Source of the DNA: an uncultured Gammaproteobacteria bacterium
GTDB lineage: Bacteria > Pseudomonadota > Gammaproteobacteria > Steroidobacterales > Steroidobacteraceae
DNA: 64,000 bases
Direction of reading: 5' to 3'
NCBI GenBank assembly: GCA_963705405.1
Contig: CAVPJJ010000003.1
Coordinates: 96,760-160,759, forward strand
Position numbers and translations under genes: made by a program. Below the pieces are notes generated by a model. That model made no database searches, was not told the origin of the DNA, and worked only from the letters and a program-made list of their open reading frames with translations. Below, one piece after another: positions 40,080-58,932 of this stretch; the first letter of the stretch is position 1, and each line of letters begins with the position of its first letter.

Positions 40080-41243
40080 TCATCGTTGGGGCAGACTCGT
40101 GCTGAGCAGCATGTGCCCGTGGCGTGCAAGATAGACGAGGAAGGCGGCCGACCAGAGCAACACCGAGCCGACGAGCGTCCACTCACCCAGATCGGTCACC
40201 GAAAACGCTAGCCGCAGCAGTGAAGCCGTGAACGCCATCAGGAAGGCGACTTGCATCACAGCCGTGGCCTTCAGGGGGCGACCGGTGTGGCGCAACGCAA
40301 CGCGTGTCATCAGGCCGATTTTCAGCATGCCGTAGGCACCGAGCGTGAACGCGTGGATCCACGCGTCACGTGGCACGCCCAGGCTGAATTCGGCAAGCGC
40401 GCGCAGCACGAGCGCGGCGATCAGCCACGCATAGCCGAGATGGATGCACCACAGCAGCGGTTCGCTGACCGTCCGCCAGCCTCGCCAGCGCGCGAATCTC
40501 CAGCCATGCACGATAGCGGCTGTGAGCGCCGCGGCCGCGGTCCAGCCCGGCGGCGCGCCGAGCAGGTCGGCGCAGGCGAAGGCGACCATGGCGAGCGCCG
40601 TCGCGTACTCGAGTTGCGGGAGCATCGAGGCCGCGTGCTCGCCGCGCGCATGCAGCCACCGGCGCGTGAATGCCGCGATGAACAGGCCCCCGTAAAGGGT
40701 GAACAGAAATGCCAGCGCGTGGACCCCGAGTATCAGTGCCCAGCGCGCATCGGGCTCCGAGCCTCGTGCCTGTGCAAAATGAAATGCAATATTTGCGCCG
40801 GCCAGCGCGACCAGCGGCGGCAGCGTCCACCAGAACAGGCGCCGACGCGCCGAGGCGATGGTCCAGAACAACATTGCGCACAGCATCGGCAACAGCGCGC
40901 AATCGATGATCGCGACCAGCGGCCGCGCGATCCACCCCGCCCCCAGCAGCGCCATGCGGCCCGCCAGCCAGAGTACCGCGAGCGCGACGAGCGGCCGGCC
41001 GCGCAACTCGGCTGCGCCGGACCAGCTTGGCAGTGCGGTGAGCAGGACACCGCACACCAGGGCGGTCGCGAAGCCGAACAGCATTTCGTGTGCATGCAGC
41101 AACGGCAGCTCAATCCCTGCACCCGGCGCGTCCCACCATCCTGCCCGTGCCCCGAACCACAGTACGAGCAGCAGCGGGCCATAGGCAGCGGCGCCGAGAA
41201 AAAACGGCCGGAAGCCGCTTGACCAGAGCGCGCGGCCGCTCAA
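40080..41243 (-). CDS. nnrS: NnrS family haem/copper membrane protein.
   Basis: It contains [44 protein letters not shown], and about 12 TM helices. The TTG start at 41243 overlaps the CoA-transferase stop (TTGA). The longer track ORF (to 41660) would run inside the upstream gene. Confidence 0.75.
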
Positions 41244-42433
41244 TCCGGAATCGCCCCGGCCGCCGCCAGCGCGCGGCACTCGTCCTCGGAAAAGCCCGCC
41301 TCGCGCAGCACCGGGCGTGTCTGCTCGCCCCATTTCGGCGGAAACCGGAATTCGCGCGCCGCGCCCGGCAGGTCGACCGCCATCGGCTGCATGCGCACAG
41401 GCTTGCCGTCCGGCATCACGGTAGTGGTGAGGCGCCCGCGCAGCGCTTCCAGCTCGCGCACCGCGGCAATGCCGTTGATCCGCGCATGCGGGATTGTCGC
41501 GGTTCGCAGATCCGCAATCAGCTCCTCGGCGCTCGCCTTTGCCGTCAGCGCGGCGATGTCGCGCTGCAGCTTGCTGCGGTCGCGGATCCGGCCCTCGTTG
41601 GTCAGACGCTCGTCGCTTGCAAGCGAGGCGAAGCGTGTCATCGTGGTAAGTCGCCGCCATTGCCCGTCGCTGCCGATCGCCATGTAAAGGAAACCGTCGC
41701 GCGCCGGAAAGACGTTGGTCGGTACGAATTTGCGGTGCTCGTTGCCGGCGCGCGCGACTTCCCAGGGCTCGCAGCCGAAATCCAGCAGCGGCAACGTGGT
41801 GATCAGCCAGGAAGCCGCCGCCTGCAGCATGGAGACGTGGATCTCGGTGCCGCGGCCGGACTCGGCGCGCTCGGCGAGCGCGAGCATCACGTTCGCGTAC
41901 ACTTCGTCACCCGCCTTCAGGTCGATCACCGGCACGCCACACAGCACCGGGGTGCCGTTCGGATCGCCGGTCAGCTCGACGTAACCGGCCATCGCCTGGA
42001 TCACCGGGTCGTAGCCCGGCACCTCCGGGTATTCGGGCCCGAGCGCCGAGATGCCGGCCCAGATCAGGTCCGGCTTCACCGCCGCGAGCGTCGCGTAGTC
42101 GATGCCGAGTGGTTGGTAACGTCCCGGTGCGGTGTTGCAACAGAACACATCCACATTCAGCCCGCGCACCAGGCGCTTGAGCGCCGTGCGCCCCTCGGCG
42201 CTCTTCAGGTTCAGCGCAATCGCCTCCTTGCCGACGTTGGGCGCGATGAAATAGCTGCGCCGGTCGTCGTCCGCGACGCGCGAGCCAATGTAGCGATTTG
42301 GGTCGCCTGGCAGGCCCCTGTCGGAATCCAGGGCCTCGATGCGGATTACGCGCCAGCCGAGCTGCACGAAGCGCAGCGTCGCATAGGGCATGGAAAGCGC
42401 CTGCTCGAGGCTGAGTACCGTGCGCCGCTTCAC
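41240..42433 (-). CDS. Family III CoA-transferase (CaiB/BaiF family).
   Basis: The GTG at 42433 overlaps the large-subunit stop (GTGA). [56 protein letters not shown] is typical of the family. It is 397 aa. Confidence 0.85.
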
Positions 42434-44832
42434 GCCGCGTCGTTCCAGACGGGCGGCTGCGCCGCGCCGTGCAGCGCGCGGTACACGTTCTCCGGCGTGA
42501 ATGGCAGTGCGGTAATGCGCACGCCGGTGGCGTTGCAGATCGCGTTTGCCACCGCCGCAGCGATGCAGATTGCCGGCGCTTCGCCCACGCCCTTGGCGCC
42601 CTGCGGTCCTTCCCCGTCCATGGTTTCGATGAAACTGACGTCCATTTCCGGGATTTCGGGCGCAGTGACCAGCTTGTAGTCGCGGAAATTCGGGTTGCGC
42701 ACCACGCCGTTCTCGACCATCAGGTTTTCGGTGAGCGCGTAGCCCTGACCCATGACGATGCCGCCCTCGATCTGGCCCTCGATGCCCAGCCGATTGAGCA
42801 CGCGTCCGACGTCGTGCGCGCCGGTCACCTTGAGCAGGCGCACGATGCCGGTCTGGGTATCCACCTCGACCTCGCAGACCTGTGTCGCCCACGCATAGGC
42901 CGCCGAGACGTCGCCCTTGAACAGCTTGTCCTGGTGGTGGCTCGGCGGCTCGTAGTAGAAAGTGGTCATCACGAGCTCGGCGCGATCGGAGAAATGCAGC
43001 CCGCGCAGGAACTTGCCGAGCTCGAAAAGCTTCTCGCCGCCGTCCCTGCACACGATATGGCCGCCGCGGAGCTCGAGCGTGTCTTCGGCATGACCTGTCT
43101 TCGCCGCGGCCGCGCCGAGGATCTTCGCCCTGGCCTTGCGCGCGGCGCCGATCGCCGAGTTGCCGGCGATGAAGGTGGTGCGCGAGGCATGCACGCCCAC
43201 GTCCCAGGGCGTGATATCGGTGTCGTTGTTGACCACCGTAACGGCCGAGAGTGGCAGGCCCAGCTCTTCGCAGACCAGTTGCGCAAGCACCGTTTCCGAG
43301 CCTTGTCCGATTTCCGAGGCGCCGGTGATCAGCGTGAGGTGTGCGAAATCGTCGATCTTGAGGATCGTGCCGCAGCCGTCCGACGGATAGATCTTGGCGC
43401 CGCCGCCGACGTGGAGCATCGAAGCAATGCCGATGCCGCGCTTGATCGGATCCGGATCGTTCCAGCGCGCGCGGTTCTCCGCCTGCTTGCGCAGGTAATC
43501 GCTGCGCGCGGCCGCAGTGCGCAGGCATTCCTTGAAGCCGCAGCTCTTGAAGTGCATGCCCTGCGGCGTGACCTCGCCCGGGTCCTGCGCGTTCTTCAGC
43601 CGGAAGGCGAGCCCGTCCATGCCGACCGCTTCGGCCAGCTTGTCCATGTGCGCTTCCACCGCGAAGGTCGCCTGCAGGTTGCCGTAGCCGCGGAACGAGC
43701 CGGCATACGGGTTGTTGGTGTAGATGGCCTTCGTGTAGTACTTGCAGTGCGGCACGCGGTAGAGCGACGAGATCGTCTGCATCATGACGAACGGCGTGGT
43801 TGCGCCCCAGGAGGTGTAGGCACCGTTGTCGTGCACCGTCTCGACCGTGCGGAAGGTCAGCGCGCCGTCCTTGCGGCATCCCGAGCGCAGCTTCAGGAGC
43901 ACCGGCTGGCGCGTGGGCGAGGCGATGAATTCCTCTTCGCGCGTGAACACCAGCTTCACCGGGCGCCGGGTGATCCTGGCGAGGAAGATGGCGATCGGCT
44001 CGAACGGGTAGATGTCGAGCTTGGAGCCGAAGCCGCCGCCGATCGGCGGCTGGATGATGCGGATGCGCCCTGGATCGATGCCGAGGAGTTCCGCGAACTC
44101 CCGCTTGTGCAGGAACGGCACCTGGGTATTCGAATGGAGCAGCAGGTTACCGCCGGGGTCGAACTCCGCGATCACCCCGGAGACGCCCATGCAGCAGTGG
44201 GTCACGTAGTGCAGCCGGAAGACGTCCTCAACGACGAAGTCGGACTCCGCTTCGCCCTGCACCACGTCGCCCTGCGCGTATTCGAAGGTCATGGCGATGT
44301 TGTCGGGCTTGCCGGCAAAGGCAACTGACGCTCCGGACGTCTTGAGCTGCGGGCCCTCACCGGTGCCGCGCGGCTCGGGGTGAATGAGCGGCGCGCCCGG
44401 CGCGAGCGCCTGCTCAGGCGTGATAACCACCGGCAGCGGATCGTACTCGACACGGATCAGCTTCAGCGCCGCCTCGGCGATCGCCTCGCTGTCGGCGGCG
44501 ACTGCCGCGATCTCGTCGCGCAGGCTGCGCACGCGGTCGGTCTTCAGCGGCAGGTGGTCCTTGGCGACGCCGATCGGCCGCTGCCACGGCACGTCTGCCG
44601 CCGTGATCACTGCGTGCACGCCGGGCAGCGCGCGCGCCGCGCTGGTATCTATGGAGACGATGCGCGCGTGCACCTGCGTCGAGCGCAGTATCTTTGCGTG
44701 CAGCGCGCCCGGCACCTCGAGGTCCTGGATGTAGCGCGTCTTGCCGCTCGCCTTGTCGGGCGCGTCCAGCTTCGGAATGCGCTTGCCGATCAGCGTGTCT
44801 TTCACGATGGGCACCTCAGCGGCTCCCATGTT
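42430..44832 (-). CDS. Xanthine dehydrogenase family molybdopterin-binding large subunit (substrate unknown).
   Basis: It starts [37 protein letters not shown]. It contains ..[15 protein letters not shown].. and ..[21 protein letters not shown]. It is 800 aa and intact. Confidence 0.85.
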
Positions 44833-45314
44833 CGGCTCCCTGCGTCGCGGCATCTGCCGCTGCCGCAATCGCCTCGATGATCTTGCGGTACCCGGTGCAG
44901 CGGCACAGATTGCCCTCGATGCCGCGCCGGATCGCCGCCTCGTCCCTGGCGTGATCGCGCTCGATCAGGTGGCTCGCCTGCACCACCAGACCTGGCGTGC
45001 AGAATCCGCACTGCACCGCACCGCTGGCGACGAAGGCATCGCGCAGGCGCTCGCCCGCCGCGTCTTGCCGCCACGCCCTCGATGGTCACCAGCTCGCGAC
45101 CGTCGCAGTCGGCCGCGAACATGAGGCAGGAATTCACCGTCGCGCCGTCCACGAGGATCGTGCAGGCGCCGCACTCGCCCTCGCCGCAGCCGTACTTGGT
45201 GCCGGTGAGCCCGAGCTGCTCGCGCAGCATCTCGAGCGCGCTCATGTCGGCGGGCACGGTCAGTTCCCTCTTCACCCCGTTCAGGGTGAATGCGATGTCA
45301 CATTTGGCGGACAT
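44816..45314 (-). pseudogene. Xanthine dehydrogenase family [2Fe-2S] small subunit. As written, there is one frame break near 45065.
   Basis: MSAKCDIAFTLNGVKRELTV..CGEGECGACTILVDG..TIEGVA continues in ORF 44816..45016 (VQCGFCTPGLVVQASHL..NLCRCTGYRKIIEAI). Confidence 0.8.
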
Positions 45315-46165
45315 GCGTCAGCACTCTCTTCAGCATGTTGTGGATGAGTTCGCACCGATACCAGTCGCTGGCGCGCACGTCCGAAATCGGATGCACTTCC
45401 TCGAGCGCGGTTCGTGCCGCAGCTTCCAGCGTCGCCGCATCGGAGGGGTCGTCCTTCGAGCGCCGCTTCGGTGCGCGGCGCGCGCACCGGCGTCGGCGCC
45501 ACTGCTCCGAATGCGAGCCGCACATCGCGCAGCACCGCGCCGTCGCGGCGCGCGCCAAGCGCGATCGAGATCGCCGCGATGTCCAGCCCCGGCCGGGTGC
45601 CATGCTTGTAGAACTCGCCCGCGAATCCCACCGGTGGCAGTGGTACCTCGACAGCCGTGAGCAGCTCCGTGGGCGCCCGGCAGCTGCGCCCTGGGCCGAG
45701 GAAGAATTCGGTGAGCGGCACGCGGCGCAGTTGCAGGACGCCATTCGGCTTTGCCACGAGCACGGCGCAGGCATTCAATGCGAGCAGCGGCACCAGAGTG
45801 TCTCCCGCGGGCGAGGCGTTGCAAATATTGCCGCCGATGGTCGCGGCGTTGCGGATCTGGTCGCTCGCAAAGTGGTCGCAGGCCTGCCAGAGCAGGTTGA
45901 GCCGCTCGCGCACCAGTGCGCTTTCCAGCAGCTCGGTGATCGTGACTAGTGCGCCGATGCGCACCACGGCGCCCTGGTCGGCGATGCCCGACAGTTCGGG
46001 CACGCGCCGCACGTTCATCAGCACTGGCTGGAACTGCAGCCGCCCGGCGTGCGTCTGCGGCATGAGATCGGTGCCGCCTGCCAGCACGGTGACATTGCCG
46101 GCGCGCAGGATGCCGGCCGCTTCCTCGAGCGTGGTCGGCGCCACATAGCGTTCAATGCCTGCCAT
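45298..46165 (-). pseudogene. Xanthine dehydrogenase family FAD-binding medium subunit. As written, there is one frame break near 45445. It has no Fe-S insertion.
   Basis: It contains MAGIERYVAPTTLEEAAGILRAGNVTVLAGGTDLMPQ and RNAATIGGNICNASPAGD. The C-terminus continues in the frame of ORF 45298..45774 (SDAATLEAAARTALEEVHPISDVRASDWYRCELIHNMLKRVL). Confidence 0.8.
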
Positions 46166-47782
46166 TCAGAGCCCCACGGGTTCGCGAAATCGGCCGAACA
46201 CGCCCACCAGCACGCTGGTGATCTCGCCGACGCTGGCATAGGCCTTGATCGCCTCGATGATGGCGGGCATCAGGTTCGCACCCGAGCGCGCATCGGTCTG
46301 CACGCGCCCGAGCGCCTCCTGCACGCGCGCCGCGTCGCGCTCGGCACGCACGCGATTGAGCGACTGGACTTGTGCGCGGGCATCCTGCTCGCTGTAGGGA
46401 TGGAATTCCATCTCGGGCACCTTCTCGTCGGTCCGGTAGCAGTTTACGCCCAGCTTGCGAAAGGTCCCGCTCTCGATCTCGCGTTGGTGCCGGTAGGCCT
46501 GCATCGAAACCTTGGCCTGGATGGCGCCCTCGGTCACGAGCTTGACGATGCCACCCTGCGCGTCCACCTCGGCCATGATGGCCTGCATGCGCTCGCGCAT
46601 CTGGTTGGTGAGCGTCTCGACGTAGTACGAACCGCCGAGCGGGTCGACGGTGTCGGTCAGGCCCATTTCCTCGATCAGGAGCTGCATCGTGCGCAGCGAG
46701 ATGCGCTGCGCGTATTCCGAGGGAATGGTGTAGGCCTCGTCGTAGCAGCACAGGGCCATCGTCTGCGCGCCGGAGAGCGCGCAGATCAGCGCGTAATAGG
46801 CACCACGCACGATGTTGAGTTCGGGCTGCTCGAAGGTAAGCCCGCCGCCGCCGCCGCCCGCGAGCATGCGCATCCACATGGATCCCGGCCTGGTCGCGCC
46901 GTATTGCTCCTTCATGATCCTTGCCCAGAGGCTGCGCCCGGCGCGGAATTTCGCGACCTGCTCGAACAGGTTGCCGAAGCAGTTGAAGTTGAACGACAGC
47001 CGTCCGGCGAATTCGTCCACCGGCAGGCCGCGGCGAATCACCTCGTCGGCGTAGGCCCTGGCGATGCAGAAGGCATACGCCATCTCCTGCGCCGGGTCGG
47101 CGCCGGACTCGCGGATGTGATAGCCGCACACCGACACCGGGCTGTATTTCGGCGCGTGCTTCGCGCAGTACTCGATGGTGTCGCCGACCAGCCGGATCGA
47201 AGGTTCCGCCGGGTACACCCAGGTGCCGCGGCCGATGAATTCCTTCAGGATGTCGTTCTGCGCCGTGCCGCGCAGCTTGGTGATGTCGTAGCCGCGCTTC
47301 TCGGCCATCGCCAGGTACATGGCGATCAGAATCGCCGCCGCGCCGTTGATGGTGAGCGAGACGGTGATGCGCTCGAGGTCCACGCCCTCGAAGGCGATCT
47401 CGAAGTCGCGCAGCGTGTCCACGGCCATGCCGACGCGCCCGACTTCGCCCTCGGCCTGCGGGTCGTCGGAATCCATGCCGCACTGCGTCGGCAGGTCGAA
47501 AGCGACATTGAGTCCGGTCTGGCCGTTGGCGATCAGGTAATGGAACCGCTTGTTGGTGTCCGCCGCATTGCCGAAGCCGGTGTACTGGCGCATGGTCCAG
47601 GGCTGCTTGCGGTACATCAGCGGATGGATGCCGCGCGTGAATGGGTACTGCCCCGGCAGCCCGAGCATGCCGTCGCCGCCGCTGGCCTCGACATCGGCCG
47701 CGGTGTAGAGCGGCTTGATCTCGATCCCCGATTCATTGATCACTGGGCGTGTTTCCATTGCCGGCGGGTCCTCTGGTTTCAT
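46166..47782 (-). CDS. Methylmalonyl-CoA mutase family, large substrate-binding subunit (no B12 domain).
   Basis: It contains PGQYPFTRGIHPLMYRKQPWTMRQYTGFG and TAQNDILKEFIGRGTWVYP, giving the Tyr/Arg pattern of the MCM-type active site. It is 538 aa, starting at the ATG at 47782. Confidence 0.85.
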   Translation of the reverse strand: MKPEDPPAMETRPVINESGIEIKPLYTAADVEASGGDGMLGLPGQYPFTRGIHPLMYRKQPWTMRQYTGFGNAADTNKRFHYLIANGQTGLNVAFDLPTQCGMDSDDPQAEGEVGRVGMAVDTLRDFEIAFEGVDLERITVSLTINGAAAILIAMYLAMAEKRGYDITKLRGTAQNDILKEFIGRGTWVYPAEPSIRLVGDTIEYCAKHAPKYSPVSVCGYHIRESGADPAQEMAYAFCIARAYADEVIRRGLPVDEFAGRLSFNFNCFGNLFEQVAKFRAGRSLWARIMKEQYGATRPGSMWMRMLAGGGGGGLTFEQPELNIVRGAYYALICALSGAQTMALCCYDEAYTIPSEYAQRISLRTMQLLIEEMGLTDTVDPLGGSYYVETLTNQMRERMQAIMAEVDAQGGIVKLVTEGAIQAKVSMQAYRHQREIESGTFRKLGVNCYRTDEKVPEMEFHPYSEQDARAQVQSLNRVRAERDAARVQEALGRVQTDARSGANLMPAIIEAIKAYASVGEITSVLVGVFGRFREPVGL

Positions 47783-48177
47783 GGCGCGTGCGCCCGGATG
47801 AAGGCGACGATGTCGTCGAGCCGCGAACTGGACTGGAATACCCCCTTGAAGCCGAGCGCCCGCAGGGCGTCGTGATCCTGCGCGGGCAGGTTGCCGCCGA
47901 TGATCCACAGCTTGCCGCCCAGGCCCGCCTGCTCGAGCAGCGGTTTCAGCTTGCGGCAGATCGGCAGGTGCGAGCCGGCCATGGAGGAGAGCGCGATCAC
48001 GTCCGCGTCCGTGTCGAGCGCGATGCGCACGATCGCCTCGGGTGTCTGGCGCAGCCCCGTGTAGGTCACCTCGAAGCCAGCGTCCGTCAGGGCCCGGGCC
48101 ACCACCTTCGCCCCCTGGTCGTGGCCGTCGAGCCCCGGCTTGGCGAGCACCACTCTGATGCGCTTGGTCGCAGTCAT
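47779..48177 (-). CDS. Methylmalonyl-CoA mutase family, small cobalamin-binding subunit.
   Basis: MTATKRIRVVLAKPGLDGHDQGAKVV contains the DxHxxG B12-binding motif. ATGA overlaps occur on both sides. Confidence 0.85.
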   Translation of the reverse strand: MTATKRIRVVLAKPGLDGHDQGAKVVARALTDAGFEVTYTGLRQTPEAIVRIALDTDADVIALSSMAGSHLPICRKLKPLLEQAGLGGKLWIIGGNLPAQDHDALRALGFKGVFQSSSRLDDIVAFIRAHAP

Positions 48178-49310
48178 GATGCCGTAACTTCTTTGGCGAT
48201 GATGAGCTTCAGGATTTCGCTGGTGCCGCCGCCGATCAGGGTGAAGCGCACGTCGCGCAGGTACCGCTGCACCGGGTACTCCATCGCGTAGCCGTAGGAG
48301 GCGAACACCCGGGCCGCCTGGTCTGCGACGCTTGCTGCGCACTCGCTGGCGAACAGCTTTGCCATCGCCGCCTCCTTGTGGTGCGGCCGGCCCACATCGC
48401 GCAGCCAGGCGGCGCGATAGACCAGCTGAGTGGCCGCCTCGAGCCCGGTCGCCATCTCGGCGAGCTTCATCTGGATCGCCTGGTAGCGGTTGATCGGCCT
48501 GCCGAACTGCTTGCGCTCGCCAGCGTAGCGCACCGCGGCGTCAAGCGCAGCGCGCGCCAGGCCCAGCGCCATCGCCCCGGTGATGATGCGGATCTCGGCG
48601 AGCGTCTTGCGCAGATGCGCTTCGCCATCGCCTTCGGTCTCCGACAGGCGGTGACCGTCGGGCACGAAGCACTCGTCAAACGCCAGTTCCGAAGTGGGCA
48701 GCGCCCAGACGCCCATCTTCTCGATGGCGCGTCCGAGCTTGACGCCTGCGAAGCTGCGCTCGACCAGGAAGATGGTGAGCTTACCTTTCTCGCCGACCCT
48801 GGCGAACACGGTGAAGAAATCCGCGACCGGAGCCGAGGTGACCCAGCTCTTCTGGCCGTTGATCACGTAGCCGCCATCGACCTTGCGCGCGCGCGTCGCG
48901 ATACCATCGAGATCGCTGCCGGCGTCCGGCTCGGTCATGCAGATGGCGCCGATCTTCTCGCCGCGCAGCGCCGGCTTGAACAGCCGCTCCAGGATGTCCG
49001 CGTTGCCGAGCATGTGCAGGAACTTGGTGCCCATCAGCGATTGCATGGCGGCACAACCCGCCAGCGACATCGAGCCGCGCGCGATCTCCTCGAGCGCAAG
49101 GCAGAATTCCGTCAGCCGCATGCCGCTGCCGCCCACGTCCTCCGGATAGCGCATGCCGAAAAGACCCAGGGCGGCCAGTTCACCGAACAGCGCACGCGGG
49201 AACGCGTGCGCCTCGTCGAGCGCCGCGGCCTGCGGCGCGATGCGCTCGTCGGAGAAGCGCGCGAATGAGTCGCGCACCTGTTGCTGCTCGGGGCTCAGCT
49301 CGTAGTCCAT
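48174..49310 (-). CDS. Acyl-CoA dehydrogenase.
   Basis: It is 378 aa. It contains ..ICMTEPDAGSDL.., ..GQKSWVTSA.. and the C-terminal catalytic-base region YAMEYPVQRYLRDVRFTLIGGGTSEI. Confidence 0.9.
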   Translation of the reverse strand: MDYELSPEQQQVRDSFARFSDERIAPQAAALDEAHAFPRALFGELAALGLFGMRYPEDVGGSGMRLTEFCLALEEIARGSMSLAGCAAMQSLMGTKFLHMLGNADILERLFKPALRGEKIGAICMTEPDAGSDLDGIATRARKVDGGYVINGQKSWVTSAPVADFFTVFARVGEKGKLTIFLVERSFAGVKLGRAIEKMGVWALPTSELAFDECFVPDGHRLSETEGDGEAHLRKTLAEIRIITGAMALGLARAALDAAVRYAGERKQFGRPINRYQAIQMKLAEMATGLEAATQLVYRAAWLRDVGRPHHKEAAMAKLFASECAASVADQAARVFASYGYAMEYPVQRYLRDVRFTLIGGGTSEILKLIIAKEVTAS

Positions 49311-49311
49311 G

Positions 49312-49737
49312 TCAGGATTTGCTCCCGAGCTCGCGCCACTGGTAATCGATCAACTCGAGCAGCACGCCATTCACCGCACTTGGATACACGAACGCGAAGT
49401 CACAGTCGCGGAAGCGCCTGAGGCCGCCGATGAACGGATATCCCTTGACCTCGAGCTCCTCTTTCGCCGCACGGGTGTTGTCCACGTTGAGCGACACGAG
49501 CATCACGCCCTCGCCGCGCTTGTCGATGAACCTGGCGACATCGCCATCCGGCGTCAGCGACTCCATCAGTTCGAAGCCGACGCCGCCCACCCAGTACCGG
49601 GCCACGCGAATCTTCTCGGGTTCGTCCACGTAGGCGTCGTCCGGTCCTTCCTTGCCGAGGATCGGCTCCCAGATCTTCTGTGCCTCGGCCAAGTTCCTGA
49701 CGGCGATGCAAATGTGATCGAGCTTGTTGACTTTCAT
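49312..49737 (-). CDS. VOC/glyoxalase-fold protein (methylmalonyl-CoA epimerase-like).
   Basis: It contains MKVNKLDHICIAVRNLAEAQKIW..GFELMESL..GVMLVSLNVDN. It is 141 aa, and an ATGA overlap links it to the upstream ligase gene. Confidence 0.7.
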   Translation of the reverse strand: MKVNKLDHICIAVRNLAEAQKIWEPILGKEGPDDAYVDEPEKIRVARYWVGGVGFELMESLTPDGDVARFIDKRGEGVMLVSLNVDNTRAAKEELEVKGYPFIGGLRRFRDCDFAFVYPSAVNGVLLELIDYQWRELGSKS

Positions 49738-51219
49738 GCCTGCGCTCCGGTGCGCGCTCCGAGCGCCTTCCGCACCGCCTCCCTCTGTACCTTACCCAGT
49801 GCGCTGTGTGGCAGCTCGTCGACGAAGCGGATTTCGCGGGGCCACTTGTAGTGCGCGATGTTTCCCTCGAACAGCGCCAGCGCCTCGGCTTCCGTCAGGC
49901 GGTGGCCGGGTTTCAGCACCACCGCCGCGACGACCGCCTCACCCCAGCGCTGGTCGGGCCTGCCGACGACACATGCCTCCTCGATCGCCGGGCACTTCAA
50001 CAGGACGTTTTCCACTTCCGCCGGGTAGATGTTCTCGCCGCCCGAAATGATCATGTCCTTCTTGCGTGCGACCACCTGCAGGTGGCCTTCGTCGTCGAAA
50101 TGGCCGATGTCGCCCGAGCGAAACCAGCCGTCGGCAAACGCCTGCGCGGTCTCGGCAGGAGCATTCCAGTAGCCCATCGCAACATTGGGCCCGCGCACCA
50201 GGATTTCGCCGTCGCAGCCCGCGGGCAGTCCGGCGCCGTCTTCGTCCACGACCTTCAGCTCGCAGTGCAGCGCGGGCGCGCCCGCCGACCCGGCCTTGCG
50301 CAGGGCATCACTGGCACGCTGGTAGGTCGCGATCGGGCAGGTTTCGGTGGATCCGTACACCTGGATCACCGGCACGCCGCATTCGCTGACCTTGCGAATG
50401 AAGTCTTCGGTAATGATCGTCGAGCCCGTGCTGATCACGCGCAGGCTCGACAGGTCGGTGCGCCTCCAGCGCGGCAGGGCCATCAGCGCCTCGAACTGCG
50501 CCGGTACCAGCACAGTGAGCGTGATGCGCTCGCGCTCGATGGCCTCGAGCGTCGCCTCCGGGTCGAATTTCGCGTGCAGCGTGACGCTCGCGCCGGCGTG
50601 CAGCGCAGGCGTGGTCTGGATGTTCATGCCGCCCACATGAAACAGCGGCAGCGTCGTCAGCACGCGGTCCTGGCTGCTGAGGTCGTGCATGTGCGTGCTG
50701 TTCAGCGCGTTCCACAGGATCGCGCGCTGCGTGACCACCACGCCCTTGGGCGCGCCGGTCGAGCCCGAGGTGTAGCAAAGCAAGCAGCGGCGAGGTCTCG
50801 TCGCCCTCGGGGGCGGGTAGGCGGGCGCAGTCCACGTTCAGCACGGACAGCCCGGTCGCAGAGATCGCACCGTCGATGGTAGCCGCGTGCGCGGCGAAGG
50901 CTGGCTCGACGAACAGGATGCGTGGCGGGCAATCTGCCAGCACCTGCGCATGCTCGCGCGGCGCGAGCCGCCAGTTTAGCGGCACGAACATCGCGCCCTG
51001 GCGCGCGCAGGCGAACAGCAACACCAGCACCAGCGGGTGGTTCAGCCCGAGGTAGGCAACTGCGTCGCCGCGCTTTACTCCGAGCCCGGCGAGTGCCGCC
51101 GCGGCGCGCGCGACACGGCGCGCGAGCTCCGCATAGCTGATGTCCTCGCCGCCGAAGCGGATTGCGACGGCGTCGGGCGAATTCCGCGCGTGTCCCTCGA
51201 TCCAGTGCGACAGATCCAT
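49734..51219 (-). pseudogene. AMP-dependent acyl-CoA synthetase/ligase. As written, there is one frame break near 50785.
   Basis: The N-terminal part is in ORF 50308..51219 (MDLSHWIEGHARNSPDAVAIRFGGEDISYAEL..). The rest is in ORF 49734..50783 (CYTSGSTGAPKG, YGSTETC, GDIGHFDDEGHLQVVARKKDMIISGGENIYPAEVE). Confidence 0.85.
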
Positions 51220-51228
51220 GGTCGGTGC

Positions 51229-52434
51229 CTAGTTCCCGCTCACTTCGAGCACCACGGCCATCGCCGTGTCGCCCGCTGCGCAGCCCGCGAACAGGCCACG
51301 TCCACCGCCGCGCGTCACCAGTTCCTCGATCAGCTCGATGATCGACCGCGTACCCATCGGCGCCTGAGGATGACCCCAGACGAGCGAGCAGCCATAGTTG
51401 TTCATGCGCGCGATGTCGGCGCCGGTGACGCGCGCGAACAGGATGTCGTTGAGCGCGAACGGATTGTGCGTCTTGATCGCATCCATGCGCTCGATCGGGA
51501 GCCCGGCTGCGGTAAGCGCGCGCTGCGCCGCGGGGGCCGTGGCCTCCGGCATGCAGGCGAGTGCCGCGCGTGACTGGCCGAATCCGAGCAGCCGGACGCG
51601 GATCTTCGGATCCTTCGACAGTTCCCTCGCGCGCTCCGGGGTCGCGAGCACGATCGCCGCATTGCCGTCGGCAGGATGCGTCTGGCCGCCGAAGGTCACG
51701 GTGCCGCCCTCCAGCAAGGGCTTGAGTTTCGCGAGTCCCTCTGGCGTGGACGCGGTGATGCCTTCGTCGCCCGGCAGCGTGACCACCACCTTGCGATAGC
51801 TGGGGTCGGGCACCTCGAACGGCAACGTCATGAATCGCCGGTGGAACGCCGCGTCACCGGCGAGTGCATCGCGATACTGCGACTCGCGGCGCAGCACTAC
51901 CTCGTGCTGCTCAGCCGTTCCGATGCCGTGTGTCTTAGCGACGTTCTCCGCGGTCGCAAGCATCGCATGCGGCCCGAGCGGGTCACAGTTGAAATTGTCC
52001 ATCACCCAGTCCTCGTGCACGCCCGTGCCTCCGGGGCCACGCGGATTCGGGTAATAGAGATGCGGTCCGTTCGAGGTGCGGTCGCAGGTGACGGTCAGCG
52101 AGACACACGAGAGCCCGCATTCAATTTCCTGCGCGCCTGCAAGCAGCACGCGGACGCCGGTAGCACAGGCCTGCATCAGCGTCGGGCCGCCAATCTGGCC
52201 GATACCCGCGCGCCCAGCGAGCCACGGCAGGCCGTAAAACGCGTGCTTCTGGGGCACGCTGAGGCCGAGCACGCCGTGATCGAAGCCCTCCGGCGGGATG
52301 CTGCGCCGCGCGAGCTCGGCCCTGACGACGTGCGCCGCGAATTCGATCGAGTGCAGGTTCGAGAGGGCGCCCTGCCAGCGCGCAAACGGTGTGCTCCAAT
52401 AACAGCCGTAAGGAATTTCTGCCTTGTAAGCCAT
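51229..52434 (-). CDS. Thiolase-fold acetyl-CoA acyltransferase-like protein.
   Basis: It is 401 aa. It has the active-site-like QACATG, and C-terminal WGHPQAPMG and GCAAGD motifs. Confidence 0.8.
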   Translation of the reverse strand: MAYKAEIPYGCYWSTPFARWQGALSNLHSIEFAAHVVRAELARRSIPPEGFDHGVLGLSVPQKHAFYGLPWLAGRAGIGQIGGPTLMQACATGVRVLLAGAQEIECGLSCVSLTVTCDRTSNGPHLYYPNPRGPGGTGVHEDWVMDNFNCDPLGPHAMLATAENVAKTHGIGTAEQHEVVLRRESQYRDALAGDAAFHRRFMTLPFEVPDPSYRKVVVTLPGDEGITASTPEGLAKLKPLLEGGTVTFGGQTHPADGNAAIVLATPERARELSKDPKIRVRLLGFGQSRAALACMPEATAPAAQRALTAAGLPIERMDAIKTHNPFALNDILFARVTGADIARMNNYGCSLVWGHPQAPMGTRSIIELIEELVTRGGGRGLFAGCAAGDTAMAVVLEVSGN

Positions 52435-53102
52435 CAGTTCGACTCCGTCATGTCGAGCAGGATGCGCTTCGCGTTGCCAAGGTGCGTGCGCATCGCCTGT
52501 GCCGCGGCTGCACCATCGCCTTTGGAGAGCGCTGCGGCAAGCTGTCTGAGACCTGCCAGGACGAGAACGCGCACTGCGGCAGTGTCGAGCGTGAAGGCGC
52601 GCAGGTAGCGTACGTGATCGGCATAAAGCTGGATCGCGCGGACCAGGCGTTTGTTCGGCACCAGCGCGGTCCAGGCATCGCGAAACCGGTAATTGGCCTC
52701 CATGAAAGCCGCGCCGTCCGCCGCCTGGTTCGCGGCCGCCATGTCCTCAAGCGCAGCGCGCAGCGGCGCGAGTGCCTTACGACCCGGCTGACTCACTGCC
52801 ACGAGCCGCAGCGCCTCCGGCTCGAGCAGGAACCTGAGCGCGTAGATGTCCTCGATGTCACCCATCGAAAGTGATGGCAAGGTGAAGCTGCGGCCATCGG
52901 CGGCCACCAGGCCTTCGCTGGCGAGCCGCGCCAACGCCTCGCGCACCGGCGTGCGGGAGACGCCCAGCTGGGTGGCGAGCACGCCCTCCTGCAACGGCTG
53001 GCCCGCGCGGATGCGGCCCGCGCGCAGGTAATCGCGCAGCGTCGTATAAACGCGCTCGCCGAGCGGCTCGGATCGTTGCAATGTGCGCAGCCTGGCGATC
53101 AT
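52434..53102 (-). CDS. GntR-family transcriptional regulator (FadR/FCD subfamily), embedded in the operon.
   Basis: It has the N-terminal winged HTH (..LATQLGVSRTPVREALARLASEGLV..) and a C-terminal all-helical FCD-like domain. Its stop overlaps the thiolase ATG by 1 nt. Confidence 0.85.
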   Translation of the reverse strand: MIARLRTLQRSEPLGERVYTTLRDYLRAGRIRAGQPLQEGVLATQLGVSRTPVREALARLASEGLVAADGRSFTLPSLSMGDIEDIYALRFLLEPEALRLVAVSQPGRKALAPLRAALEDMAAANQAADGAAFMEANYRFRDAWTALVPNKRLVRAIQLYADHVRYLRAFTLDTAAVRVLVLAGLRQLAAALSKGDGAAAAQAMRTHLGNAKRILLDMTESN

Positions 53103-53116
53103 GTGGCGGCGCCTCC

Positions 53117-55118
53117 CTAACCGGTCCGCGAAAAATCCGGCTTGCGCCGCTCGCGAAAGGCGATGATGCCTTCACGCGCGGCCGCCGTGCAGGCGCTGCG
53201 TCCGAACGCCCGGTAGCCGACATCCAGTGCGGTGGCAAATGTCGGTGCTGCCGCCGCGGTGCGGACCGCGTCCTCGATGATCCCGACCACTTCGCGGCTG
53301 AGTGGTTGCGCGGCAGCCATTGCGTCGAATGGCGCGATCGCGACAGGGTGATCCAGCGGCGCCCGCCGCTTGCCGGCGAGCGCGTGCACGCACGCCACGG
53401 CCTGCCGGATCAACGATGCATAATCGTCGGCGAGTTCCGCGATGATTCCGGCCTCATGCGCCTTGGTCGCGTCGAGCCGCTCGGCGCGGCGCAGCATGCC
53501 GTGAAAAAGCGCCGCCGCCTGCGGCCAGCGTCGATAGGGAACGACCATCGCCCCGATGCCCGGCGCAATTCCCAGCGTGATTTCCGGGAACTGCAGCCAC
53601 GCACCGCGCTGCGCGACGATGGCGTGGCAGCGCATCGCCAGCTCCAGCCCGCCGCCGAGCGCCATGCCGTTCAGCGCCGCGACCACCGGTTTTTCCATCG
53701 CGTCCAGGTGCACGAGCAGCCGCGAGCAGTCGCGCGCGTATTGCGCCGATGCCGCTGCATCGCCGAGCACGCCGGAAAAGCGCCCGACGTCGGCGCCGGC
53801 GCAGAACGCGCGCGTGCCGTAGCCGACTAGGATAAAGCCCTGCACCGCGGGATCCGCCTCATGACGCCGGATGACCTGCCAGATTTCGTCATTGAGTTCA
53901 TCATGCAGTGCGTTCCGCACCTCGGGCCGGCGCAGGGTGATGACGATCACGCCGTCCAGCCTGTCTATCAGTACGCTGCGCTCGAAGCGTTGATATTCGC
54001 CGAGCGCACGCTGCGGCATCGGCATCCCAGGGCGCTCTGCAGCGAAACGCTGCAATACTCGCCGTACCTCGGGCTCGCCCAGCATTCGCATCAACTCGAG
54101 CGGGCCGTGCCGGAAGCCGAGTGCCAGGCGACAGCCCAGATCGAGGTCCGGAGCCTCGCCGATGTCCCGATCGAGGATATCCACGGACTGCGACCACAGC
54201 ACGCCGAGCAGCCGGTCGCGCACCGCGCCGGAGACGTCGGCGGGCACCGGGACGCGCTTGCCGATGGCGCAAGTGGCCCAACTTGCAACTGAGCGGAAGA
54301 TCGGCGCGGGATCGTAATGCCCGCCTTCGGCCCCAGCCTGCAGCGTGTTGGCCTCAGTGATGATCGGGTTTCCGTTCGCGAGGTTCAAAACGCAGAAAGG
54401 GCCCGCATGCACGAATTCCCCGGCCACGCTGTCAATCTGCGCCGCCGTGGCCCGCGTCAGGCAATGCGCGGCGTCATTGCACCAGTTGTCGAATACCCGG
54501 TCGAGCATGAAGCATTCCACGTCCGCGGTAATGAGCGGCACCTTGCCGGTGACGCAGAAGAACCAGTGTAGGTATTCCACGACTTGTGGGTCGGCCTCGC
54601 GCGCGCGTACCACCTCGACTACTGGATTACGCCACGCGGGTGCGAAGAAGTGGGTCACCGTGGCGCGTGCCTTGTGCTTCAGGCCCGAGAACACTCGCGC
54701 CGCCGGCAGGGAACTGGTATTGGAGGTGATGAGGGCATCGGCCGGCACCAGCGTCTCGACCTGCGCGAAGATCTTCTGCTTCAGGGAGAGGTCTTCGGTC
54801 GCGGCCTCGAGGACCCAGTCGGCCCCGCGGATCGCTTCATAATCGGTGCTGCCCCGCACGCCGCGCGTCACCGCGGCAGCGTCGGCCTCGCTCATCTTGC
54901 CGAGTGCGCGGGCTTTGGTCGGCATACTCCCCGAAGCGCGCCAGGGCCCGGTCGATAGCCGGCTGCGCGACATCCACCAGCACCAGGTCCAGGTCCGGGA
55001 GAGCGCTCTTCAGGTAGTAACCGATGTCGGGCCCGATGGTGCCTGCGCCGATCACCGCAACCCGCGAAGGAATCGGCCGCGAGGGAGCCTGGAGCAGGGG
55101 GTTACGGGACCCGGCCAT
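53117..55118 (-). pseudogene. Bifunctional 3-hydroxyacyl-CoA dehydrogenase / enoyl-CoA hydratase (dehydrogenase N-terminal, crotonase C-terminal). As written, there is one frame break near 54930.
   Basis: MAGSRNPLLQAPSRPIPSRVAVIGAGTIGPDIG (Rossmann) is in ORF 54837..55154. It continues in ORF 53117..54973 (..TSNTSSLP..HFFAPAWRNPVVEV.. and the crotonase motifs AFCAGADV and ALNGMALGGGLELAM). Confidence 0.8.
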
Positions 55119-55159: not shown

Positions 55160-57261
55160 ATGCGCATCGGAATTGACGTCGGCGGCACGTTCACCGATTT
55201 CGTCCTGCTGGAGGATGCCAGCGGGCGCACTCATACCTACAAGTGCCTGACCACGCCCCGTGACCCGTCGGACGCCATCGAAAAAGGCCTGCGCGCCCTC
55301 GACAAGCCAGATTCCGGGCTGCGTCGCGGGGATGGAAGAAGTGATCCACGGCACGACGCTAGTGATCAACGCCATCATCGAGCGCAAGGGCGCGCGCACC
55401 GGGTTGCTCACCACGCGCGGTTTCCGCGACGTACTCGAGCTCGGCCGCGAGATGCGCTATGCGGCCTATGACGCCTTTGCCCAGATGCCAGAACCGCTGG
55501 TGCCGCGGGAGCGACGGCTGGAGGTGGACGAACGCGTGCGCGCCGACGGCAGCGTGCTTGTGCCACTCGACATGGCGCAGGCGAATGCAGCAGTGCGCGA
55601 ATTGGCCCAGCTTGGCGTCGAGTCGGTCGCCGTGTGCTTGCTGAATTCCTTCGAGAATCCGGTGCACGAACAGGCCCTCAAGCGCCTGCTCGCCAAGGAT
55701 TTCCCGCAGGCCTCGGTTTCCATTTCCTACGATGTACTGCCGCAGATCCGGGAGTACGAACGCACCAGCACCACGGTGACCAATGCCTACGTCAAGCCAC
55801 TCACCGAGACCTATCTGCGGCAGCTGCGCGAGCGCCTGGGCAACCTGGGTTTTCGCGGCCGGTTGTTCATCATGCTTTCTTCCGGCGGCGTCACGTCGGC
55901 CGAGACGGCTGCGGAGTTTCCGGTGCGCATCATCGAATCTGGCCCGACCGCGGCCGTGATCGCCGCTCAGTACTACAGCAATCTGTTCCAGTGCCCCGAG
56001 ATGTTCTGCTTTGACATGGGCGGCACGACCGCAAAGTCCTGCCTCATCCAGGGCGGCATCGCCGGAGTGGTGCCGACCTTCGAGGTCGGGCGCGTGCAGC
56101 GCTTCCAGAAAGGCAGCGGCCTCACCATCCAGGTGCCGGTGGTCGACCTGATGGAAATCGGTGCCGGTGGCGGCAGCATTGCACGCGCTGAGCCGGCTCG
56201 GCACGCTACAGGTCGGCCCGCAGAGCGCTGGCGCCGAGCCCGGACCGATCTGCTACGGACGCGGTGGTGTCGAGCCGACGGTGACCGACGCGGACCTGCT
56301 GCTCGGCTATCTCGATCCTGGCTACTTTCTCGGCGGCACGATGCAGCTGGATGCCGACGCGGCACAGCGCGGCATCGAGGACGCGAGTAGCGCGGCCGCT
56401 CGGCGTGTCCTAGCCTGGAAGCCGTGTGGGGCATCCACGACCTCATCAACGAAACCATGGCAGCCGCGGCAAAGACGCACATCGCCGAGCGCGGCGGCAA
56501 TCCGCAGCTCGTCACGGTGGCGGCGTTTGGCGGCGCCGGGCCCGTGCATGCCTGTGGGCTCGCGCGTAAGCTGGGCGCACCCCGCCTGCTGGTGCCGCCC
56601 AACGCTGGCGTCGGCTCGGCGCTTGGCTTTTTCACTGCACCGCGTGCATTCGACCTGGTGCGCAGCCACAAGGTGCCGCTCACGGCGGCGGATTTCGGGA
56701 AACTGGAGATGCTGTTCCGCGAGCTGGAGGCTGAAGGCGAGCGCACATTGCGCCGGGCCGGCGCCGAAGGGCCGATCGGATTTTCGCGCTCGGTCGAGGC
56801 GCGCTTCATCGGCCAGGGATCGGAGACCGAGCCTCGCCATCGCCGAGCGTGATTTCGGCGCGCTGGATCCCATCGAACTGCGTCGCCGCTTCGACGACAA
56901 CTACGCGCGGCTCTACGGCCGTACCTATCCGGAGTCGCCGGTCGAATTCGTCAACTTCTGCGTGCGCGCCAGCCTGCCGGTGAAGCAGCTTACCCTGCCC
57001 AGGATCGCGCAGCGGGGGCGCACGCAGGATGCCTTCAAGGGCGAGCGCAGGGCCTATTGCGCAAGCGTGCGCGACTTCATCCCGCACGCCGTCTATGACC
57101 GCTATCGACTTTCCCCGGGCGCCGAGCTGTCGGGACCGGCAATCGTCGAGGAGCGCGAGTCCACGGTGATCATCGGCGAGCACGCGCGGGCGCGGGTGGA
57201 CGAGTTCGGCTTCCTGTGGATCGACCTGCCCAAGGAGCGAAGCCGTGGCGACAGGCGTTGA
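55160..57261 (+). pseudogene. Hydantoinase/oxoprolinase family, HyuA-type (ATP-dependent hydantoinase or acetone/acetophenone carboxylase family subunit). As written, there are about four frame breaks.
   Basis: MRIGIDVGGTFTDFVLLEDASGRTHTYKCLTTPRDPSDAIEKGL continues through ORFs 55260..56390, 56161..57261 and 56424..56852, then back to the 56161..57261 frame. The breaks are near 55330, 56195, 56410 and 56830. Confidence 0.8.
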
Positions 57262-58932
57262 GCCGCGCTTTGACCCGATCACACTGGAGATCCTCTGGCG
57301 ACGGCTGATCTCGATCGTCGATGAATCCGACGCGGCGGTCGCACGCACGGCGTTCTCCAGCCTGCTGCGCGACGCGCACGACTACACCTGCATGTTCACG
57401 GACGCGCGCGGGCGGGAACTTGCGCAGGGCACGCTCGCCACGCCCGGCCAGTCGGGCGCGATGGCGCTCGGCATCAAGCAGCTGGTGCAGGGCCTGCCGC
57501 CGGACTCCTTCCGGCCGGGCGACGTGTACATCACCAATGACCCCTGGGCGCTCGCCGGCCACCTGAACGACGTCTGCGTGCTGAGCCCGATCTTCCATCG
57601 CGACCGTCTCGCCGCCTTTACCGCCTGCATCCTGCACCACTCGGACATCGGCGGGCGGGTCGCCTCGGACAACCGCGAGGTATTCGAGGAAGGCCTGTTC
57701 ATCCCGCTGGTCAAGCTCTACGACGCGCGGGCAGCTCAACCAGGGTGTGCTCGACATGATCCGCGCCAACGTGCGCACGCCGGAGCAGGTGAACGGCGAC
57801 ATCCGCTCGCAGATCGCCGCCAACCACGTCTGCGCCGCGCAGGTCGTGCGCATGCTCGAGGAGTACGGGCTCGACGGCCTGGACGATCTGGCCGACGAGA
57901 TCATCGCGCGCAGCGAGAAGAGCATCCGCGCCTCGATCGCGAAGGTGCCGGCGGGCGTCTACCGTTCCGAGGGCGTGATCGAGCAGATGGAAGGGCAGCC
58001 GGAGGTCCTGATCCGCTGCGCGGTCACGATCCAGGGCAGCGACATCACGGTGGACCTGAGCGGCTCTTCGCCGCAGGTGGAGTGGGGCGGCAACGTCGTC
58101 TACAACTTCACCTACGCCTACGTGCACATGGCGGTGAAGAGCATCTTCGACCCGGAGATCCCGAACAACGACGGCATCGCCGCGCCGATCCGCCTCGTCG
58201 CGCCGGAAGGCACGGTCGTCAACTGCCGCCATCCCGGCGGCGGTGGCGGCGCGCATGCAGATCGGGCACTTCATCACCGAGATCATCTACCGCGCGCTCG
58301 CCGGGGCGCTGCCGGATCGCGTGGTCGCCGGCGGCGGCGGCACGCCGGCGACGATGCAGATGTTCTACGGCCGGCACGGCGACGGCCGCCCGTTCCACAC
58401 CGTGCTGATCCGCGGCGGCGGCCTGGGCGCAAGCGCGGGACGCGACGGCGAGGGCAGCTTCATCTTCCCGGCCAACGGCGCCAACACTCCGGTCGAGATT
58501 CTCGAGAGCGACTCGCCCCTCATCGTCGAGCGGCGCGAACTGCTCCCCGATTCGGGCGGCGCCGGCAAGCAGCGCGGCGCGCTCGGCCGGCGCGAGGTGT
58601 TCCGCGTGCCCGACGACGCTTACGCGCCGCAGCCGCCGGTGAGCCTCGCGATCCAGTCAGGGCGGTTTCGCCTGCCGCCCGAGGGCCTGTTCGGCGGCCA
58701 GCCGGGCGCGCTCGCACGTTTCCTCGTCAATGGCAGGCCGGGCGATCCGTACGGGCTGACGCGCCTGCAGCCCGGTGACACGCTGGTCATGGACGCGGCG
58801 GGCGGCGGCGGCTTTGGCGATCCGCGCGAGCGCGACCCCGGGCTGCTTGCGCGCGACCTGCGCGAGGGCAAGGTGAGCGCCGAGAGTGCGCAGCGTGACT
58901 ATGGCGCAGCGAAATCGCCCCGGGAATCCTGA
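57245..58932 (+). pseudogene. Hydantoinase B/oxoprolinase family, HyuB-type subunit. As written, there are two frame breaks near 57735 and 58245.
   Basis: MATGVEPRFDPITLEILWRRLISIVDESDAAVARTAFSSLLRDAHDYTCMFTDARG.. continues in ORF 57747..58778 (MLDMIRANVRTPEQVNGDIRSQIAANHV..) and ORF 58243..58932 (..RGGGLGASAGRDGEGSFIFPANGANTPVEILES..). Confidence 0.8.

Follow-up and report, generated by a model that had tools for sequence, protein, structure and literature searches.

Soil and sediment bacteria that turn over auxin influence plant-microbe signaling. To our knowledge, the biochemistry of the oxygen-independent route of indoleacetate degradation, encoded by the iaa genes, has been studied only in Aromatoleum. 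The iaa gene cluster of Aromatoleum aromaticum EbN1 and A. evansii KB740 was reportedly described by Ebenau-Jehle et al. in 2012 (J Bacteriol 194:2894) and by Schuhle et al. in 2016 (Environ Microbiol 18:3120); it is also the subject of work by Schuhle et al. in 2021 (PMC8360864). Here this system is compared with a 13-gene locus in a 64,000-nucleotide stretch of DNA, called the window throughout, from an uncultured gammaproteobacterium of the Steroidobacteraceae (positions 96,760 to 160,759 of contig CAVPJJ010000003.1); the source assembly, GCA_963705405.1 (G000), is metagenome-assembled and comprises 2.64 Mb in 11 long contigs at a marker completeness of 53%. In Aromatoleum, the iaaABCDEFGHIJKLMPQR locus leads to 2-aminobenzoyl-coenzyme A (2-aminobenzoyl-CoA) (PMC9613470). 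Activities have been published for IaaB, an indoleacetate-CoA ligase, for IaaL, a phenylsuccinyl-CoA transferase, and for IaaF, a decarboxylating benzylmalonyl-CoA dehydrogenase from a subclass that has GGG in place of the YEG motif; IaaGH has been assigned as the mutase, IaaM is a binding protein, and iaaD is a truncated gene (PMC8360864). Iaa enzymes have also been named 2-oxoindoleacetyl-CoA gamma-lactamases (PMC5214803), and the mutase, the molybdenum (Mo) enzyme and the lactamase of the pathway have been assigned from context in the literature (PMC8360864; PMC9613470; PMC5214803).

We assign the locus on the minus strand at 40080-55118 of the window, with a probability of roughly 0.87, to a variant of the iaa operon for the oxygen-independent catabolism of the auxin indole-3-acetate. 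It is orthologous to and collinear with the Aromatoleum locus: ten of its genes have collinear orthologs in A. aromaticum, namely iaaA, iaaB, iaaF, iaaG, iaaH, iaaI, iaaJ, iaaK, iaaL and the GntR regulator gene, with protein identities of 52-80%. In the host organism, the locus would have the same pathway function. The original prediction for this DNA, which was made from the letters alone, was thus wrong in holding that the gene set had no described match; finding the set in a known, characterized pathway had been named there as the outcome that would refute it. It was right about the chemistry: CoA activation, Mo-dependent hydroxylation, a B12-dependent rearrangement and beta-oxidation are what the iaa pathway uses.

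The A. aromaticum locus (L128) encodes, in order, a GntR regulator, a thiolase, a ligase, HyuA, a 68-aa open reading frame (ORF), HyuB, an acyl-CoA dehydrogenase, a B12-binding subunit, a mutase, the FAD, FeS and Mo subunits, a CoA-transferase and a binding protein. This order corresponds to the alphabetical series iaaA to iaaM and agrees with what has been published on B, D, F, GH, L and M. The acyl-CoA dehydrogenase of the window aligns with the characterized IaaF of A. aromaticum (WP_011236983) over its full length and without gaps, at 80% identity (302/377), and carries GGG at residues 360 to 362 (IGGGTSEI) in place of YEG. The split mutase genes lie directly downstream of iaaF, in the same position as A. 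aromaticum iaaG and iaaH, and the genes for the FAD, 2Fe-2S and Mo subunits are placed between the mutase and the CoA-transferase, again as in A. aromaticum. Across the whole G000 assembly, the best matches of the Aromatoleum Iaa proteins all fall inside this cluster, with the exception of the hydantoinase subunits. For these comparisons, the locus of A. buckelii was reached by a published iaaF primer and the A. aromaticum protein and locus were reached through a 90%-identity cluster; the search of genome contigs with the EbN1 iaaF primer matched A. buckelii and not A. aromaticum, together with 28 unrelated acyl-CoA dehydrogenase genes.

Pfam and NCBIfam scans of the minus-strand ORFs at 40080-55118 recovered the 13 gene families in the order originally given. 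The first gene (53117-55118) encodes a FadB'-like protein with an N-terminal 3-hydroxyacyl-CoA dehydrogenase and a C-terminal enoyl-CoA hydratase (Pfam 3HCDH_N, 3HCDH and ECH_1), interrupted by a +1 frameshift near 54921. It is 67% identical to the product of the FadB-like gene that lies divergently in the iaa locus of A. buckelii and is probably the iaaP counterpart, with a role in the beta-oxidation of 2-aminocinnamoyl-CoA. A GntR/FCD regulator gene follows (52434-53102; Pfam GntR and FCD; 52% identity to the GntR gene in the same position in A. aromaticum) and then an iaaA-type thiolase gene (51229-52434; Pfam Thiolase_N/C; 72% identity to A. aromaticum IaaA over 398 aa), whose product would convert 2-aminobenzoylacetyl-CoA to 2-aminobenzoyl-CoA and acetyl-CoA. 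The iaaB-type indoleacetate-CoA ligase (49734-51219) shows its AMP-binding domain over two frames, with a +1 frameshift near 50782, and is 52-61% identical to A. aromaticum IaaB. Next come a gene for a VOC-fold, methylmalonyl-CoA-epimerase-like protein (49312-49737; Pfam Glyoxalase_4), which is without counterpart in the Aromatoleum operon, and iaaF (48174-49310) for the decarboxylating (2-amino)benzylmalonyl-CoA dehydrogenase described above. The (2-aminophenyl)succinyl-CoA/(2-aminobenzyl)malonyl-CoA mutase is encoded by iaaG (47779-48177; B12-binding small subunit; Pfam B12-binding and TIGR00640; 76% identity to IaaG) and iaaH (46166-47782; large subunit; PF01642 at 630 bits; 78% identity to A. 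aromaticum IaaH).

The three subunits of the xanthine dehydrogenase (XDH)-family indoleacetyl-CoA hydroxylase follow. The FAD subunit gene iaaI (45298-46165; FAD_binding_5 and CO_deh_flav_C) is 62-65% identical to IaaI in two frames, with a +1 frameshift near 45442-45449. The [2Fe-2S] subunit gene iaaJ (44816-45314) has its N-terminal half (Fer2) and its C-terminal half in different frames, at 62-75% identity to IaaJ, with a +1 frameshift near 45063. The molybdopterin subunit gene iaaK (42430-44829; Ald_Xan_dh_C, MoCoBD_1 and MoCoBD_2) shares 80% identity with A. aromaticum IaaK across 790 aa; its start is uncertain, the candidates being GTG at 44814 or 44805 and ATG at 44829, the last of these preceded by an AGGGAG motif. 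The run closes with iaaL (41240-42433) for a family III CoA-transferase acting as (2-amino)phenylsuccinyl-CoA transferase (PF02515; 67% identity to A. aromaticum IaaL over 395 aa) and nnrS (40080-41243) for a haem/copper membrane protein (PF05940 at 284 bits).

Codon-by-codon reading bore out the tight junctions previously reported (overlaps of 1, 4 and 17 nucleotides [nt] and gaps of at most 14 nt). ATGA overlaps occur at 49737/49734, 48177/48174 and 47782/47779, a GTGA overlap occurs at 42433/42430, and a TTGA overlap at 41243/41240 couples nnrS translationally to iaaL. There is a 1-nt overlap at 52434, the intergenic gaps measure 14, 9, 1 and 0 nt, and the FAD and FeS genes overlap by 17 nt (45298-45314), which is visible only on reading through the frameshift in the FAD gene. 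A scan of the locus for promoters and terminators found no promoter-like site and no terminator-like sites above the level of shuffled sequence, and is neutral as to a single transcription unit. The inventory of 13 genes was correct as far as it went, but it left out a divergent hydantoinase pair upstream, which we count as part of the system, and did not notice that four of the genes are frameshifted.

The steps proposed for the host follow the Aromatoleum model. IaaB would activate indoleacetate to indoleacetyl-CoA, which the XDH-family Mo enzyme IaaIJK, using water, would hydroxylate at C2 of the pyrrole ring to give 2-oxoindoleacetyl-CoA. An ATP-dependent lactamase of the hydantoinase type would open the lactam to (2-aminophenyl)succinyl-CoA, and the family III transferase IaaL may move CoA between the two carboxyls or exchange it with succinate. 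The split B12 mutase IaaGH would rearrange (2-aminophenyl)succinyl-CoA to (2-aminobenzyl)malonyl-CoA, from which oxidation and decarboxylation by IaaF would yield 2-aminocinnamoyl-CoA. The FadB'-like enzyme and the thiolase IaaA would then produce acetyl-CoA and 2-aminobenzoyl-CoA, the latter passing into the benzoyl-CoA pathway. About 8 kb before the window, the assembly encodes the B subunit of a benzoyl-CoA reductase of class I (ATP-dependent; G000:C3:87849-89084; 839 bits, above the TIGR02260 cutoff), which fits this downstream fate of 2-aminobenzoyl-CoA. From this gene, the host is likely to degrade aromatics anaerobically or as a denitrifier, and the window probably belongs to a larger aromatic-CoA island. 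A search for BoxB gave no match in G000, from which, at 53% completeness, no conclusion is drawn.

The same gene run recurs in many other genomes. When 185,579 species genomes were scanned with the Mo subunit, 355 relatives came up; the locus comparisons reported here concern the best 80 of these, which have Mo subunits 77-93% identical to that of the window. None of the claims made here depends on the unpublished genome G011. They belong to Burkholderiales, Rhodocyclales, Rubrivivax, metagenome-assembled genomes (MAGs) of Xanthobacteraceae and Bradyrhizobium, and "Ca. Desulfobacillus denitrificans". The genes for the ligase, the acyl-CoA dehydrogenase, the small and large mutase subunits, the FAD, FeS and Mo subunits and the CoA-transferase are collinear in most of the 80 loci, and thiolase, GntR and FadB-like genes lie near this conserved run. 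The operon-level synteny that had been proposed as a check on the original prediction thus extends to dozens of other genomes, far from a chance arrangement. Within the genus of the host, an ortholog of the iaa mutase was present in only 1 of 24 other genomes (G024; 85% identity), and the others contained only mutase paralogs at no more than 47% identity, such as an IcmF-like fused mutase of about 1,150 aa; the cluster is therefore accessory within the genus.

Some of the related loci depart from this pattern or carry additional neighbors. Six of them, all from Xanthobacteraceae or Bradyrhizobium MAGs (L032, L040, L042, L047, L058 and L078), keep the genes for GntR, the thiolase, the ligase, IaaC/E, the Mo enzyme and the CoA-transferase and have no acyl-CoA dehydrogenase or mutase gene at 50% identity or more within the 10-kb flanks; their lower pathway may be either encoded elsewhere or replaced. 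When the remaining ORFs were clustered, 44 of the 80 loci proved to have a hydantoinase B gene as a neighbor, and about 30 a LIV-type ABC transporter. A fused gene resembling indolepyruvate:ferredoxin oxidoreductase (TPP_enzyme_C, POR and DUF6537) neighbors 19 of the 80 loci (L014-L093). Together with the transporter, this gene is a hint that indolepyruvate derived from tryptophan is a further source for some clusters.

The window operon and that of Aromatoleum differ in their lactamase genes. In Aromatoleum, iaaC, iaaD and iaaE lie inside the operon, whereas the window operon has none of these and is flanked, across 41 bp, by a distant and divergent hydantoinase A/B pair. The first gene of the pair, hyuA (55160-57261, plus strand), encodes a hydantoinase/oxoprolinase A-type subunit (Hydant_A_N and Hydantoinase_A) and contains two +1 frameshifts; the second, hyuB (57245-58932, plus strand), encodes a B-type subunit that matches the HyuB of a related locus (L056) in three frames at 67-82% identity, again with two +1 frameshifts. 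Over the main aligned pieces, HyuA is 26-33% identical to IaaC and HyuB is 28-36% identical to IaaE. No ortholog of IaaC or IaaE was found in G000, and the similarity of IaaC/E to the window pair is comparable to their similarity to paralogs on other contigs. A carboxymuconolactone decarboxylase-family gene (PF02627; 58995-59720, minus strand) is convergent with hyuB, and so the divergent unit here consists of the two hydantoinase genes only; no malonyl-CoA decarboxylase gene comes after the pair.

Among the 80 related loci, two arrangements are found and they are mutually exclusive. In type A, the gap between the ligase and acyl-CoA dehydrogenase genes measures 3.7-4.5 kb and is filled by IaaC/E-type genes 70-91% identical to those of Aromatoleum; in the alternative, the gap is either 9-41 nt (type B1) or 406-467 nt with a VOC gene (type B2), the latter being the arrangement seen in the window and in its congener G024. 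Hydantoinase A genes of the window type (79-89% identity) were found upstream and on the opposite strand in all 12 of the 12 loci that carry one; none of the 12 has an IaaC-type gene, and the ligase-to-dehydrogenase gap is short wherever it is measurable among them. The divergent hydantoinase A gene is likewise present in all related loci lacking iaaC/E that include the upstream flank. In a 97%-complete genome of the same genus with the variant cluster, none of 13 hydantoinase A matches was more than 38% identical to IaaC. According to NCBIfam, both types of hydantoinase best match caprolactamase subunits and not carboxylases. The intact ortholog of the window pair best matches CapA and CapB, at 526 and 214 bits, and IaaC/E do likewise; these scores, however, fall far below the 1000-bit equivalog cutoff, and the genes of the pair sit among those of an aromatic CoA-ester pathway rather than of caprolactam catabolism. 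The hydantoinase/oxoprolinase family includes ATP-dependent lactam hydrolases. Given the complementary distribution, the congener without an IaaC match above 38% identity and the shared caprolactamase matches, we infer that the divergent hydantoinase A/B pair may be a nonorthologous replacement of IaaC/E as 2-oxoindoleacetyl-CoA lactamase.

In the position occupied by iaaC-E in Aromatoleum, ahead of iaaF, the window instead has the VOC gene, which resembles methylmalonyl-CoA epimerase (MCE). The VOC protein aligns with TIGR03081 over the full length of the model at 65 bits, below the cutoff of 115, and its Protein Data Bank (PDB) match to human MCEE is distant (E = 1.6e-6); some sources label members of its 90%-identity cluster "methylmalonyl-CoA/ethylmalonyl-CoA epimerase." The gene is found in the 406-467-nt gap of 10 related loci. 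IaaF is enantiospecific and takes a single enantiomer of benzylmalonyl-CoA, and the other can be rescued by a methylmalonyl-CoA epimerase (PMC8360864). Encoded next to iaaF, the VOC protein may accordingly be a dedicated (2-aminobenzyl)malonyl-CoA epimerase serving this enzyme. It is dispensable, being absent from types A and B1.

Downstream of iaaL, where Aromatoleum has iaaM for the binding protein, the window has nnrS. IaaM had no match in the window at E values up to 1e-8, and IaaM-like genes occur in only some related loci; in 24 of the 80, iaaL is followed by an nnrS gene of at least 55% identity. The physiological electron acceptor of IaaF is not established (PMC8360864), which leaves room for a speculative role of NnrS as an electron outlet. 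Two further differences are that the FadB'-like gene is divergent in Aromatoleum but codirectional and first in the operon in the window, and that a TetR gene belongs to the Aromatoleum cluster only, with none in the window cluster. It is possible, if doubtful, that type B represents a distinct and recurrent solution for the iaa pathway, combining the hydantoinase replacement, an MCE-like epimerase and an NnrS outlet for IaaF or the Mo enzyme, the last being the most speculative of the three. In the Aromatoleum literature considered (PMC8360864; PMC9613470; PMC5214803), the type B arrangement is without description.

Comparison with other known systems places the mutase and the Mo enzyme apart from their better-known relatives. 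The Tyr/Arg pattern of the mutase held up on alignment: its RQYTGFG and IGRGTW motifs align with Tyr89 and Arg207 of methylmalonyl-CoA mutase (MCM), and 2-hydroxyisobutyryl-CoA mutase HcmA has Ile and Gln at these two specificity positions. The enzyme shares its two-subunit architecture with HcmAB, and HcmA (4R3U) is the best PDB match of the large subunit, at 515 bits; with MCM it shares the Tyr and Arg substrate residues. Retention of these carboxylate-binding residues fits an arylsuccinyl/arylmalonyl-CoA substrate. Canonical MCM of propionate metabolism was rejected (NF006944 at 511 bits versus a cutoff of 876), as was a propionate module of canonical MCM and epimerase, which falls below the NCBIfam cutoffs. 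A canonical fused MCM is encoded elsewhere in G000, on contig C4 (779 bits to PF01642).

The Mo enzyme resembles the 4-hydroxybenzoyl-CoA reductase HcrABC in being a three-subunit XDH-family enzyme encoded beside a CoA ligase, and TIGR03194 is the top NCBIfam match of its Mo subunit. The scores nevertheless stay well under the cutoffs for that enzyme (TIGR03194, 587 versus 995 bits; TIGR03195, 87 versus 405; TIGR03193, 78 versus 258), and those for xanthine dehydrogenase are also below the NCBIfam cutoffs. The FAD subunit has about 290 aa and matches the 321-position TIGR03195 model at profile positions 7-116 only. We know of no described furoyl-CoA or thiophene-carbonyl-CoA hydroxylase or nicotinate pathway with an acyl-CoA mutase, and in view of the iaa match these candidates were set aside. 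NCBIfam gave no equivalog-level name for the ten cluster proteins scanned, and only domain or subfamily models of the mutase subunits passed their cutoffs. Apart from these mutase models, such subcutoff scores make clusters of this kind look "novel" to readers who have only the sequence. A second XDH-family operon, hcrCAB-like, is present in the window at 4405-7153 (plus strand); it shares 34-44% identity in the FeS and Mo subunits with IaaJ and IaaK of A. aromaticum and is a paralog outside the iaa system.

Four of the 13 operon genes, those for the FadB-like protein, the ligase and the FAD and FeS subunits, are not open in a single frame and contain one extra base each (near 54921, 50782, 45442-45449 and 45063, respectively). 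Four further +1 shifts lie in hyuA and hyuB, each of which reads from frame 2 to 3 to 1 against its intact L056 ortholog. Each of the eight changes is a +1 insertion, and neither premature stops nor deletions were seen in the alignments. A 10-kb contig from the same genus (L013; 78% nucleotide identity), collinear with 43340-53501, carries intact ligase, FAD and FeS genes, with a ligase of 490 aa, and the window differs from it by single inserted bases; the contig ends within the FadB-like gene, before the frameshift site of that gene. Contigs from metagenome run X3, about 93% identical to the window, are one base shorter at 45063, 45442, 50782 and 54921. From the best-matching soil run, X1, which is the likely source sample, a contig of 238 nt with 3 mismatches spans the FAD site and shows one single-base gap, for which the exact position is not listed. 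Judging from the intact relatives and from the metagenome contigs without the extra bases, the eight frameshifts are probably long-read assembly errors; a pattern made up entirely of insertions is the signature of systematic error of this type and not of random decay. With 4 shifts in 3.8 kb, hyuA and hyuB are hit more densely than the iaa operon, where 4 are spread over 15 kb.

If the frameshifts were real, the locus would be an iaa operon decaying in this strain, with a nonfunctional pathway. The number of frameshifts (eight in about 19 kb), the mutase ortholog in only 1 of the 24 congeners (G024), which makes the cluster accessory and open to loss, and the 3 of 4 operon sites over which there is no X1 contig would agree with decay. 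We nonetheless regard it as unlikely, since all eight changes are single-base insertions, long contigs here go together with a marker completeness of just 53%, the one X1 contig over the FAD site differs from the window by 3 mismatches in 238 nt and one single-base gap, and both the contigs at about 93% identity and the same-genus ortholog are intact. A functional operon might also employ iaa-like enzymology on a different substrate, for example, an indole-3-alkanoate, an oxindole derivative, a synthetic auxin analogue or another aryl- or heteroaryl-acetate, with the changed ring-opening enzyme and the added epimerase reflecting that substrate. A hydantoinase pair only 26-36% identical to IaaC/E over the main pieces, a ligase 52-61% identical to IaaB and the VOC and NnrS genes without counterpart in the reference operon are compatible with this proposal. 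The enzymes that face the ring system and its products, however, are highly conserved with respect to A. aromaticum (IaaK, 80%; IaaF, 80%; IaaH, 78%), and one type of Mo enzyme occurs with both types of lactamase, which argues for one substrate and two interchangeable lactamases; a different substrate therefore seems improbable to us. The original reading, an undescribed pathway built from a Mo hydroxylase, a CoA-transferase, a B12 mutase and beta-oxidation enzymes for a substrate it left unnamed, could point to the lack of equivalog-level NCBIfam names for the ten proteins and to a general literature search on the enzyme combination that returned no match. It is scarcely credible against gene-for-gene collinearity with a published iaa operon and an acyl-CoA dehydrogenase 80% identical to a characterized IaaF (PMC8360864).

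Several observations weigh against assigning the locus to indoleacetate degradation. The letters A, C, E, I, J, K and P are our probable assignments from gene order, and two named components of the reference system, an IaaC/E ortholog and the IaaM binding protein, were not found in the window. The candidate replacement lactamase is only 26-36% identical to IaaC/E, and its presumed substrate is deduced from position and distribution. A ligase at 52-61% identity to the characterized IaaB may have a shifted substrate range. Contigs from X1 reach only one of the four operon frameshift sites, and real inactivating mutations are thus possible in this strain. The pathway function, finally, is a prediction from genes, the sequencing runs found being DNA metagenomes only.

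With the locus read as an iaa operon, this is a known pathway in a new host with a recurrent variant architecture, and the locus and its 355 Mo-subunit relatives show how widely it is distributed among uncultured Burkholderiales, Rhodocyclales and Xanthobacteraceae. From the variant come testable leads on which enzymes open the oxindole lactam, on the in vivo role of benzylmalonyl-CoA epimerization and on what reoxidizes IaaF. Variation in the Mo enzyme was also seen within Aromatoleum itself. Nine Iaa proteins (B, C, E-H and L) are 95-99% identical between A. buckelii U120 (L126/L127; G041:C2:116000-154000) and A. aromaticum (L128), whereas IaaI, IaaJ and IaaK are only 53-55% identical between the two, as if the cassette for the XDH-family hydroxylase had been exchanged within an otherwise near-identical operon. 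The widespread type of Mo enzyme is that of A. aromaticum, 80% identical to that of the window.

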